Shown here piece by piece: positions 1 through 4,639 of a stretch of DNA of 4,828 nucleotides. Numbering within the stretch: position 1 is the stretch's first letter; each line of letters opens with the position of its first letter. The notes under the pieces were generated by a model. The model was given only the letters and a program-made list of their open reading frames with translations. It ran no database searches and was not told the DNA's origin. This DNA is from a virus (taxonomy: Duplodnaviria; Heunggongvirae; Uroviricota; Caudoviricetes), in the IMG/VR virus record IMGVR_UViG_2547132270_000008; one strand, written 5' to 3'. A program made the position numbers and the translations under genes.

Positions 1-20
1 CAGCCGTGAATAAATCGTAG

Positions 21-50
21 AATATCGGAAAATATCTGCAAATATCTTCG
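21..50. repeat. Three tandem 10-bp units (AATATCGGAA / AATATCTGCA / AATATCTTCG), so the hexamer AATATC recurs every 10 bp; candidate protein-binding array or intrinsic bend in the leader upstream of alpA
   Basis: Read directly: AATATC at 21-26, 31-36 and 41-46 with exact 10-bp spacing, plus a degenerate AAATCG at 12-17. The repeat is certain; the function is inferred. Confidence 0.45.
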
Positions 51-387
51 CTTTATATATGTCAACCATCAAAAAATTGGAATGTCTTCTTCTGAACTTT
101 TATTCTCTGTTTCTTGATTGTTCCAATACTTGATGGTTTATCTATTTGTTTTTAATGAGATAATTCAAGCGTAATGCCAAATAACGACATTTTTTGTTGC
201 ATCGCTTAAAAACTCGTGACACGATTTTAAACACTAACGAGCTTCTACGAACCTTAGCGAACAAAGCCTTTAGCAAGGTTGTGTTTTTAATTTAAGAGGT
301 GAAAAAAGAATCTAAGTAATATCCGATCTCATATATCTACAGCTAAGAGAAAAGTTTATATACGTAATTTTTTATGTAGGTTTTTGT

Positions 388-597
388 ATGCGTGAAATAA
401 ATGAAGATCGCGTAATCCGTGAGGATGAATGTCGTAAGTTAACTGGAGTGTGTCGCACTACACGCTATGAACTGGAGAAAAAAGGGAATTTCCCGTCACG
501 CCGTAATCTGGGCGGTCGTTCTGTAGGTTGGCTGCTGTCCGAGGTTATGGAATGGGTTAAAAGCCGGGATCGCATTAATTCAGGCAAGGCAGCGTAA
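388..597 (+). CDS. alpA: AlpA-family (Xis-like) small helix-turn-helix prophage regulatory protein, 69 aa
   Basis: Complete ORF, ATG 388 to TAA 595-597. Small basic protein with a central HTH-like segment and the C-terminal motif G-R-SVGW...E..EW that I recognise from AlpA/Vis/Xis-type regulators of P4-like elements. Weak AGG 7 nt upstream of the ATG. Family call is from motif memory, not a search. Confidence 0.85.
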   Translation: MREINEDRVIREDECRKLTGVCRTTRYELEKKGNFPSRRNLGGRSVGWLLSEVMEWVKSRDRINSGKAA

Positions 598-610
598 AGG
601 GGGGCATATG

Positions 611-647
611 ACACATAAAACAAAGGCGACCCGGATCAGAGGTCGCC
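611..647 (-). terminator. Putative intrinsic terminator for the minus-strand operon (hairpin plus U-tract on the minus strand only)
   Basis: Perfect 7-bp GC-rich inverted repeat GGCGACC (625-631) / GGTCGCC (641-647) with a 9-nt loop. On the minus strand the stem is followed immediately by TTTGTTTTATGTGT (complement of 624-611). On the plus strand no T-run follows the stem. Lies 65 bp downstream of the stop of ORF 712-921. Confidence 0.4.
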
Positions 648-711
648 AGTGGGAATACACTAAACATAAGCCCAGCCATCATAGCGATTTGCTGGCTGGT
701 GGGCAATGTGA

Positions 712-921
712 TCAGCCTGGTGGGCGGTTCCTGTTAGCTTTCATTACCCGGGGCTGTTTATTGAGAAACTCATCAAGCGCAAATTTTGTAGGCGCTGGTT
801 CTGTATTTGGTGGCATTTGTTTAGCGTGTGCCTTTTCTTTCTGGCGTGCAACAATGCTCTGTAAAAGCAATCTTCGTTGTTCTGCGAAAATCTCTTCAGT
901 GGATAGGTATTTTTTGCTCAT
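712..921 (-). CDS. Hypothetical 69-aa protein, second gene of the minus-strand operon
   Basis: ATG at 921-919, TGA at 714-712. Charged, helix-prone sequence (MSKKYLSTEEIFAEQRRLLLQSIVARQKEKAHAKQ...), unlike the Cys/Ser/Arg/Trp-rich antisense plus-frame ORF 608-1561. Same strand as the RHH gene, 57 bp downstream of it, and followed by the 611-647 terminator. No family recognised. Confidence 0.5.
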   Translation of the reverse strand: MSKKYLSTEEIFAEQRRLLLQSIVARQKEKAHAKQMPPNTEPAPTKFALDEFLNKQPRVMKANRNRPPG

Positions 922-978
922 AGTGCCGACCTGTAAAGCAATGCGCCGGAGTACCTCACACCACAGCGCTGATAGTGA

Positions 979-1158
979 TTATTCTTGCTCTTTAGCCTTG
1001 CGTCGCTGGCGGCGTTTGATCTCGCCTTCTAATGCGGCTGTTACAAACTGCCCTGTACTTTCGCCGTCTTCTTTGACCTTATCCATGGCATCAACGATAT
1101 GGAGTGGGACACGTGCATCTATTCTTTTCGATTTTGCATTTACTGATTTCGTTGCCAT
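979..1158 (-). CDS. Ribbon-helix-helix (CopG/Arc/MetJ-like) DNA-binding protein, 59 aa; candidate repressor
   Basis: ATG at 1158-1156, TAA at 981-979. The track ORF starts at an upstream GTG (1236) that would lie inside the palindromic operator region, so I prefer the ATG. Sequence MATKSVNAKSKRIDARVPLHIVDAMDKVKEDGESTGQFVTAALEGEIKRRQRRKAKEQE has a short basic N-terminal strand (KRIDARVPL), two helices and a basic tail, the RHH pattern. Weak GGA about 9 nt upstream. Confidence 0.6.
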   Translation of the reverse strand: MATKSVNAKSKRIDARVPLHIVDAMDKVKEDGESTGQFVTAALEGEIKRRQRRKAKEQE

Positions 1159-1179
1159 TTCTGATTTCCGATTGGTTTG

Positions 1180-1261
1180 GTGTCCGACAATGATAGCGAG
1201 AAAAAAGTTTAATGCAATGCTTGACGTGTCCCACACCGATAAAATAACATGTGTCCGACAC
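1180..1261. promoter_or_regulatory. Divergent promoter/operator region: three copies of the 11-bp palindrome GTGTC-C-GACAC overlapping candidate promoters for both strands
   Basis: Palindrome copies at 1180-1190 (GTGTCCGACAa, 10/11), 1226-1236 (GTGTCcCACAC, 10/11) and 1251-1261 (GTGTCCGACAC, perfect). Candidate plus-strand promoter TTGACG (1221-1226), 18-bp spacer, TAACAT (1245-1250). Candidate minus-strand promoter TTGCAT (complement of 1217-1212), 16-bp spacer, TATCAT (complement of 1195-1190). Promoter hexamers are weak matches called by eye. Confidence 0.45.
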
Positions 1262-1357
1262 TTGATTTTTATCAGTCATAAAATGACGAAACCCCGCACT
1301 GTTGGAGCAGTAACGGGGCTTCTAACCACCAACGATAGCGAAAGTATCGAGGTAGCT

Positions 1358-1561
1358 ATGCTAAATCATACCACACACCCGCAAGGGCGGGACTCGCACA
1401 ACCTGAATAAATACATCTGGCGTTTTATCGCCCTGAGCACCGCACAACCGCGCGTGATTCACATCGTGGCCACCAGCGAACAGGAAGCACGCCAGCAATC
1501 CCCGGCTGGCTGCGTGATGGTATTCGCCGCCCGTATTCGTCAGGGGGTGTGCCATGCCTGA
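1358..1561 (+). CDS. Hypothetical 67-aa protein, first ORF of the plus-strand operon
   Basis: ATG 1358 preceded by GAGGT (1349-1353). Stop TGA 1559-1561 overlaps the ATG at 1554 of the next ORF (ATGCCTGA). Codons are dominated by E. coli-preferred CTG/CCG/CGC/GTG/ATC/ACC. This is the 3' end of track ORF 608-1561, whose upstream part I treat as antisense artefact. Alternative in-frame ATG at 1283 has no SD. The opposite-strand ORF 1361-1555 is a competing reading. Confidence 0.4.
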   Translation: MLNHTTHPQGRDSHNLNKYIWRFIALSTAQPRVIHIVATSEQEARQQSPAGCVMVFAARIRQGVCHA

Positions 1562-4322: not shown

Positions 4323-4639
4323 TGCGGGTTATGCGGGTTACTCTGTGTATAAGTGCATTAACTGCATGAATAAAAAGGAAATCAATAACCCGCACGTAAC
4401 CCGCAAAACGGCAGTTATAACCCGCAAAAGTGCGATTATAACCCGCAGATGAATAACAGGAAGTGACAGCAAACAGCCACGCGTAACCCGCAGAAAAAAC
4501 CCCGTTTGCGGGTTATTTTGAGCATTTTGCGGGTTACGCCACGGCTAAACAGTAAACAGTTAATTTTGTAATGTATTGATATTAAGGAATAAAAAATACT
4601 TAGCAAGCGAAGATAACCCGCTAACCCGCATAACCCGCA
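4323..4639. repeat. Putative origin of replication: 12 copies of the 9-bp iteron TAACCCGCA (both orientations) flanking an AT-rich spacer
   Basis: Reverse-orientation TGCGGGTTA at 4323-4331, 4332-4340, 4507-4515, 4528-4536. Forward TAACCCGCA at 4386-4394, 4397-4405, 4418-4426, 4439-4447, 4484-4492, 4614-4622 (TAACCCGCt), 4622-4630, 4631-4639. Spacings of 9, 11, 21 and 21 bp recur. AT-rich spacer 4541-4612 contains tandem TAAACAG x2. The array begins 23 bp after the replication gene stop. Confidence 0.65.

Follow-up and report, generated by a model that had tools for sequence, protein, structure and literature searches.

What is the function of short direct repeats set exactly 10 bp apart in the spacer between an integrase gene and alpA, and what, if anything, reads them? 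The window, i.e. the whole stretch of 4,828 nt that was analysed, begins with CAGCCGTGAA TAAATCGTAG AATATCGGAA AATATCTGCA AATATCTTCG. An exact motif search placed AATATC on the plus strand at 21-26, 31-36 and 41-46, which bears out the triple repeat with 10-bp steps reported in the preliminary description. The pattern AATATC-N4-AATATC-N4-AATATC arose in none of 200 dinucleotide-preserving shuffles, and Tandem Repeats Finder returned a period of 10 with 2.7 copies and 88% matches for positions 21-47. A scan allowing two mismatches revealed a further in-phase copy that begins at position 11. A degenerate copy had previously been assigned to 12-17; the string AAATCG given for it is correct, but the placement that keeps the phase is 11-17, where TAAATCG agrees with AATATCG at five of seven positions. 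The window thus holds an array in the sense of two or more direct repeats in helical phase, with four units starting at 11, 21, 31 and 41 (Table 1). Elsewhere in the 20-kb locus, as represented by L001 and L002, no second phased AATATC pair was found. Outside the island family, matches to the triple pattern among viral contigs lie mainly in contigs labelled GVMAG.

The array in its phage satellite

The window covers the left portion of a phage satellite of the PICI type, which is located between yljB/cspD and clpS. By BLAST alignment it is about 98% identical to a chromosomal island of many E. coli strains, and some part of it is matched in 1,853 of 5,426 complete E. coli genomes. In 322 genomes the first 126 bases occur together with the int 3′ end, in every case downstream of the same integrase. 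In annotated relatives the gene order is cspD, yljB, a tyrosine integrase (+), an AlpA-family regulator (+), two small minus-strand genes, an Icd-like gene, DUF4222, DUF927 or a primase, a capsid/terminase or shorter packaging module, and clpS. L001 represents the capsid-forming kind of island and L002 a different type. Pfam assigns DUF927 to the replication protein, and an arm-binding domain (PF13356) and a catalytic domain (PF00589) to the integrase. A 317-aa ORF at 608-1561 (+) of the window is annotated in no relative; it is probably spurious, since relatives annotate the two small minus-strand genes (712-921 and 979-1158) and the Icd-like gene over this region instead.

Both the integrase gene and the att site that had been expected to the left of the window are present. 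The integrase gene runs on the same strand as the array and ends 33 nt to the left of position 1, so that the array begins 53 nt after the integrase stop codon; it ends 341 nt before the alpA start codon. The int-alpA spacer has a G+C content of 31%, compared with 48% for the window. Comparison with the empty site in K-12 gave the att core ATGATAGTTATYTATCA, which lies about 1.47 kb to the left of the window array. In L002 the core occurs at 6546 and 17278, which makes an island of 10.7 kb. In L001 the attL core (6546-6562) and the array (8011-8047) are about 1,475 bp apart, with the whole of int between them.

Table 1 Coordinates of the array units and associated features (window positions unless a locus is named)
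Feature	Position	Strand	Remarks
Unit 0	11-17	+	TAAATCG; degenerate, in phase
Unit 1	21-27	+	AATATCG
Unit 2	31-37	+	AATATCT; extra 10-bp unit, class I alleles only
Unit 3	41-47	+	AATATCT
Hairpin HP1	L001 7977-8007; 3′ arm (CAGCCGT) = window 1-7	+	ACGGCTGT-N17-ACAGCCGT
T/A-rich tract, then TGTCAA (60-65)	52-66	+	TGTCAA complementary to TTGACA overlapping the int stop codon; closes the segment of HP1 and array
Weak sigma-70-like promoter candidate TTGGAA-18-TATTCT	77-106	+	8/12 matches in the window; putative
CGAAC-N5-CGAAC (GTTCG pair on the minus strand)	248-262	-	shares its core with the TGTTCG repeats of both att arms
alpA	388-597	+	AlpA-family winged-helix regulator/excisionase-like, 69 aa; PF05930, E = 2.9e-16
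Twelve AACCCGC/GCGGGTT iterons	4324-4638	both	on either side of an A/T-rich tract (~4550-4600), following directly on the DUF927 primase gene
TGTTCG/GTTCG att-arm clusters at 10-bp phase	L002 6569-6656 and 17152-17176		three clusters on two arms
Doubled 12-mers GGTGTAGT(C/T)AAT GGTGTAGTTAAT	L002 6683-6706 and 17183-17206		~140 bp right and ~90 bp left of the att core centre

Arm-type integrase sites were among the functions initially proposed for the repeats. The N-terminal arm-DNA-binding domain of the integrase and the position of the array next to int would suit such a role. However, the array lies beyond int, and its distance from the core far exceeds the roughly 200 bp that served as the criterion for arm sites. 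The arms themselves use other motifs. In the P′ arm, which extends from the core to int, two copies of GTGTTCG by the core are followed by three to four copies of TTGTTCG at 10-bp phase and then by GGTGTAGTCAAT GGTGTAGTTAAT. The P arm at the right end has three copies of TTGTTCG and then two of GGTGTAGTTAAT. The doubled GGTGTAGTTAAT stands 90-140 bp from the core, and neither att arm contains a phased AATATC. The arm repeats annotated in P4 ('attP arm sequence repeat', NC_001609) are likewise short direct repeats that go with an arm-binding-domain integrase, and they too are doubled 12-mers near the core, one set on each of its two sides. P4, CP4-57 (upstream of intA) and the present island share this arrangement, and AATATC is not among the doubled 12-mers. 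A doubled motif described for helper-embedded PICIs resembles those of the island (PMC10111431). We consider it scarcely credible that the array provides arm-type sites for integrase-mediated recombination.

On the model of P4, where int is followed by ori, vis, alpha and crr, the array could also have been taken for a replication origin. The iterons that follow the primase gene form an origin-like field separate from the array (Table 1), and a position after the primase gene is the usual site of PICI origins. The array has neither this motif nor this location, and identical arrays occur with different primase types; a role as the origin was therefore rejected. P4 nevertheless offers a formal parallel: three tandem 10-bp 'ori type 2 repeats' (GCTTTAAGTG-like; L257 9176-9205) lie 146-175 nt upstream of vis and agree with the window array in number, period and gene side. 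Yet their sequence is unrelated to the array, the P4 annotation counts them as part of the replication origin, and int does not lie beside them, so that we regard this as a resemblance and not as evidence of homology. We know of no established function for these P4 repeats.

Variation of the array among sister alleles

We compared 23 distinct haplotypes of the segment from the int stop codon to the array, which came from E. coli genomes, viral contigs and metagenomes. The array element is found at the same spot in all 23 of them and falls into six sequence classes. Class I, to which the window belongs, reads AAATCG/AATATCG/AATATCT/AATATCT, class II AAATCG/AATATCG/AATATCG, and class III AAATCG/AAGTTCG/AAGTTCG. 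The remaining classes are AAATCG/AATATCG/AAGTTCG (IV), AAAACG/AATATCG/AAGTTCG (V) and AAATCG/AATATCG/AAATTCG (VI). The number of units changes in whole 10-bp steps, from two in the metagenome contig L256 through three in classes II-VI to four in class I. Units are spaced by 10 bp in 10 of 12 representative alleles, and 11 and 9 bp occur once each. As to the conservation of repeat number and phase in relatives, the 10-bp phase is kept and the copy number varies from two to four.

The units conform to the logo W-A-n-W-T-C-(G/T), in which A2, T5 and C6 are invariant, and three spacer bases are nearly free. Unit 0 is AAATCG in five of the six classes (AAAACG in V), with AGATCT in the L002 lineage. 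Unit 1 is AATATCG in classes I, II, IV, V and VI despite differing flanking spacer bases, and the homologue of unit 3 is AATATCG in class II, AAGTTCG in classes III-V and AAATTCG in class VI. Of the 8-9 mutational events inferred within the 12 class-I haplotypes, none struck any of the three AATATC hexamers (a rough p of ~0.01-0.02 from small numbers); unit 0 was hit twice in one lineage. Every one of the 322 E. coli genomes with this int 3′ end has retained the element. Three contigs (L006, L025 and L156) share a 28-bp deletion that takes the T/A-rich tract and TGTCAA and leaves the three AATATC units intact. One genome, NZ_CP024815.1 (strain CREC-629), matches the int 3′ end and array in six places, and nearly all other genomes do so in one.

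Across classes I, IV, V and VI the int 3′ end, HP1 and the downstream sequence are nearly identical, so that the hypervariability is local to the array. The HP1 type and the array class recombine independently of each other. The array class showed no covariation with the alleles of AlpA or of the integrase, or with primase type. We regard the element at the int-alpA boundary as genuine, conserved in phase and variable in sequence. Our preferred, still tentative reading is that it represents a phased DNA-level array for AlpA at this boundary, which has become degenerate in the window allele.

The hypervariability between near-identical flanks, together with the independent recombination of HP1 and array, would also suit a site at which a factor encoded by the helper phage docks to switch on the satellite, with the classes reflecting different helpers. 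Helper phages activate alpA transcription, and the inducer is not identified in the reports concerned (PMC6092414; PMC11773190). However, class I is present in L001 as well as in L002, nothing ties the classes to helpers, and the array is far from alpA with no defined promoter nearby, which makes a helper-specific docking site very improbable. A broader version, in which the array is a cis-acting sensor for satellite switch-on that is read by low amounts of AlpA or by a helper-phage protein and whose classes tune the threshold or the helper specificity, appears to us quite unlikely.

RNA structure and possible DNA curvature of the boundary

HP1 begins 9 nt after the integrase stop codon. All six classes keep its fold, even with the different 3′ arms found in class I and in classes II/III. 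In L186 two paired changes convert U-G/G-U into U-A/A-U. HP1 is without a U-run on the plus strand; a terminator, an mRNA stabiliser and an antisense stop are candidate roles for it. Over about 100 nt from the int stop codon, fold z-scores range from -4.7 to -6.3 in all six classes, and nearly all of this stability comes from HP1 and from the closing stem formed by TTGACA with TGTCAA (60-65). The six pairs of the closing stem are invariant in 12 of 12 aligned haplotypes and for that reason provide no covariation. The consensus fold of the alignment is uninformative owing to indels.

The array itself behaves differently from class to class. In the window it folds alone with -6.8 kcal/mol (z -0.35), and in classes I, IV, V and VI it is no more stable than shuffled sequences. 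Class II forms a strong array hairpin (-14.5 kcal/mol, z about -4) and class III a moderate one. The two units of L256 give a perfect hairpin of 12 bp around a 3-nt loop; class II shares this stem, with a loop that is 10 nt longer. Classes II and III show the geometry of A-run, hairpin and T-run, and a terminator on the minus strand is called in class III. A terminator hairpin was considered as the conserved feature and rejected, as it holds only for classes II, III and L256 and none is called at the array in the window. No Rfam match was found in the window at E <= 1.

These data bear on the idea that the element is an RNA structure, i.e. a structured 3′ end of the int mRNA composed of closing stem, HP1 and a second hairpin, which terminates or stabilises the transcript. 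The z-scores of the segment, the compensatory changes in HP1, and the runs and the terminator call in classes II and III agree with it. But almost none of the stability resides in the array, and no compensation is seen in the changes within class I, where L002 has TCG to TCT on both sides. As an explanation of the array, an RNA element is in our view very unlikely.

The same data leave more room for the proposal that the array is a decaying remnant of an alpA-proximal terminator or operator that became separated from alpA, with three exact hexamers that arose by recent slipped-strand duplication of 10 bp within what was once a hairpin loop and are not read by any protein. Exact 10-bp steps between the alleles with two, three and four units, the common stem of L256 and class II with loops differing by 10 nt, and a hairpin that is strong in class II and absent in the window would all be expected on such a history. 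So would the lack of a GTTCG core in the window units, the missing covariation with any protein allele, and the presence of a separate GTTCG pair that now lies nearer to alpA. Drift alone, however, does not sit well with core positions and a 10-bp phase that were kept over six divergent classes in which the spacers change freely. Nor does it fit the identity of unit 1 in five classes, the invariance of the hexamers in the class-I haplotypes, or the retention of the element in 322 of 322 genomes. Altogether we rate a mere remnant as somewhat unlikely, though as the chief rival of the AlpA reading.

A further possibility concerns the shape of the DNA. Each unit consists of an A-rich run, TCG and a G/C-richer spacer, and the low G+C content of the spacer would suit bent A/T-rich DNA that nucleates the host proteins H-NS, IHF or Fis and helps to silence alpA until a helper arrives. 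The AA/TT periodicity at 10-11 bp places the array at the 99.5th percentile of 50-bp segments of the locus. In addition, ATCAAAAAATTG at 68-79 is a candidate match to the IHF consensus, and ATATCGA resembles the high-affinity motif of H-NS. On the other hand, the array ranks only 12th among the clusters in 20 kb, and about a dozen other sites have equal or higher periodicity. In most relatives a 1-nt insertion interrupts the IHF-like match, and curvature does not require the conservation of a specific T-C-G core. We rate nucleation of a host nucleoid protein as unlikely.

The array, the GTTCG motif and AlpA

Phased direct repeats serve as sites of small winged-helix recombination directionality factors; examples are X1-X1.5-X2 of lambda Xis, the Cox boxes of P2, and boxes I and II of P4 Vis. 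Like the array, these sites have three to four head-to-tail units about one helical turn apart, and the island has int nearby and encodes a Vis/Xis-like protein. Since cooperativity tolerates degenerate middle units in such sites, the weak cores of the array would be explained as well. There are, however, two differences. Xis, Cox and Vis sites are found inside an att arm, at distances of tens of bp up to about 150 bp from the core, whereas the array is 1.47 kb away and beyond int. Moreover, unlike in sites of this type, the array units differ from the motif that is repeated in the att arms of the island.

AlpA of the island is 45% identical to P4 Vis, and one relative was found in the PDB (8C3T). 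No AlpA binding site is described in the searchable literature. The Pseudomonas AlpA antiterminator was dismissed as a guide to the site, as it is a different, larger Q-like protein. In the model island, AlpA activates the promoter of its own gene and triggers int-dependent excision (PMC6092414). That island, EcCICFT073, is a Gram-negative PICI with the order int, alpA, primase and origin, like the one studied here, and has an AlpA-autoregulated alpA promoter (PMC6092414). Its operator has not been mapped, and in the present island the GTTCG pair at 248-262 is a better operator candidate than AATATC.

Because P4 annotates doubled 12-mers as attP arm repeats, we assigned the doubled GGTGTAGTTAAT to Int as its likely arm sites, and by this analogy TGTTCG would be left for AlpA. 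TGTTCG/GTTCG is thus a candidate recognition motif for AlpA as excision factor and autoregulator. That it belongs to AlpA rather than to Int we infer from the P4 arrangement; a related Int and a related AlpA are both present in every island compared. All relatives keep the GTTCG pair at 248-262, even where the alpA module is divergent. It is probably the alpA-proximal operator, a role for which the AATATC array had initially been considered. The array is less suited to it, with 341 nt between its end and the alpA start codon, no promoter called in window 1-700, and the GTTCG pair closer to the gene.

More distant islands support the view that such elements belong to the boundary. A profile scan of genome contigs with the AlpA alignment gave no matches, and an integrase scan of the contigs provided one useful locus, Shigella L133. 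Four islands (L176, L178, L181 and L188) have integrases that are 66-93% identical, an extra gene between int and alpA, and GTTCG pairs upstream of alpA. They carry TAGAATCG TCCTC GTTCG GCAAC GTTCG AGGACG TTTTTTT ATG, in which AATCG/GTTCG/GTTCG make up three TCG-containing units 10 bp apart, inside a hairpin of -17 to -20 kcal/mol with a U-run. About 40 bp of this homologous element can be aligned with the class III array. The hairpin directly abuts the alpA start codon and holds the ribosome-binding site in its 3′ arm, so that it could both terminate and translationally silence read-through transcripts. Hairpin and U-run are located at 2045-2090 in L176 and at 2430-2470 in both L188 and L181, and in L176 a TAGAAT hexamer lies just upstream. 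The loop bearing the GTTCG pair is inverted in L181; this keeps the double-stranded motif but not the RNA sequence and therefore points to a site at the DNA level. The window element differs from these hairpins in that it is without a hairpin, without GTTCG and 341 nt away from alpA. In L200-L230 and in Shigella L133 (4255-4320), with an integrase about 77% identical, five to seven tandem 10-bp GAACAA(C) units begin 30-40 nt after the int stop codon. As distant islands carry such arrays, a phased repeat array between int and alpA is a general feature of the group. The family of the window has two sets in opposite orientation, namely the array and the pair at 248-262.

For scoring the array, 18 TGTTCG-type sites from the att arms and from upstream of alpA were combined into a matrix. 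Among all 11-mers of the locus the window units reach only the 65-94th percentile and so score at background. AAGTTCG units in sister alleles (classes III-V) rank at the 99.8-99.9th percentile, in the range of the weaker genuine sites. The relaxed pattern WTCG-N6-WTCG is the sole one common to the window array, the att arms and the alpA upstream region. In L001 four of its seven matches fall in the P′ arm (two), the array and the alpA-upstream site, and in L002, where unit 0 is AGATCT, there is no match at the array and two more in the P arm; 2.5 are expected in either case.

Promoter evidence near the array is scarce. The candidate at 77-106 exists in relatives in a TTGAAA version with 9/12 matches, no more than in shuffled sequences. 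If it were used, the array would occupy positions of about -65 to -100 relative to its predicted start. Within window 1-700 the only terminator called is a minus-strand one at 625-647, just past alpA. There, a terminator-like hairpin (GGCGACC...GGTCGCC with a T-run) is kept in relatives and probably ends the leftward transcript of the small genes.

We infer that the array is bound by a protein, that this protein is AlpA, and that binding would have a regulatory consequence. The AATATC triplet is the form that class I has of a boundary element conserved in this PICI family. This element is placed directly after the int 3′ hairpin and upstream of the alpA control region and is composed of three to four W-A-n-W-T-C-(G/T) units 10 bp apart on one face of the helix. 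The winged-helix AlpA, a Vis/Xis-like regulator and probable excision factor, may dock cooperatively on the phased units and bend the DNA, so that the array would act as an accessory upstream set of sites alongside the GTTCG pair at 248-262. The element of sister alleles and related islands also folds into a hairpin of the intrinsic-terminator type, which would insulate alpA from int read-through. In the window allele the units would have drifted from GTTCG to TATC(G/T), one 10-bp unit would have been gained and the hairpin lost. Binding to this allele, if any, would be expected to be weak and dependent on cooperativity.

In favour of AlpA we count the placement and phase in 23 of 23 haplotypes, the invariance of the hexamers, the AAGTTCG scores, the WTCG pairs, the elements of distant islands and the analogy to P4. 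The points counted against it are the background matrix scores, the absence of allele covariation, the variation between two and four copies, the one 9-bp spacing and the three contigs without the adjacent block. The distance of 341 nt to the alpA start codon, with no convincing promoter adjoining the array, also speaks against it.

In the switch-on of Gram-negative PICIs by helper phages, AlpA figures as the master activator. For a widespread E. coli island family, found in 322 of the 5,426 complete genomes, the TGTTCG/GTTCG motif, the doubled 12-mers and the phased array now provide concrete candidate cis-elements. If the array binds AlpA, one small protein would couple excision, autoregulation and the insulation of alpA from int transcription. 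If it does not, we would be looking at a displaced regulatory element that decays and expands by slippage.

A last observation concerns the spacer closer to alpA. In L200-L230 and L133 the GAACAA units are followed by GAGGCGAAAAAG, which matches GAGGTGAAAAAAG at 296-308 of the window. This conserved block opens a 6-codon GTG mini-ORF (MKKESK, 296-319), and the Shigella relative has a 7-codon mini-ORF at the matching position; the mini-ORF may be a leader peptide or a coincidence.
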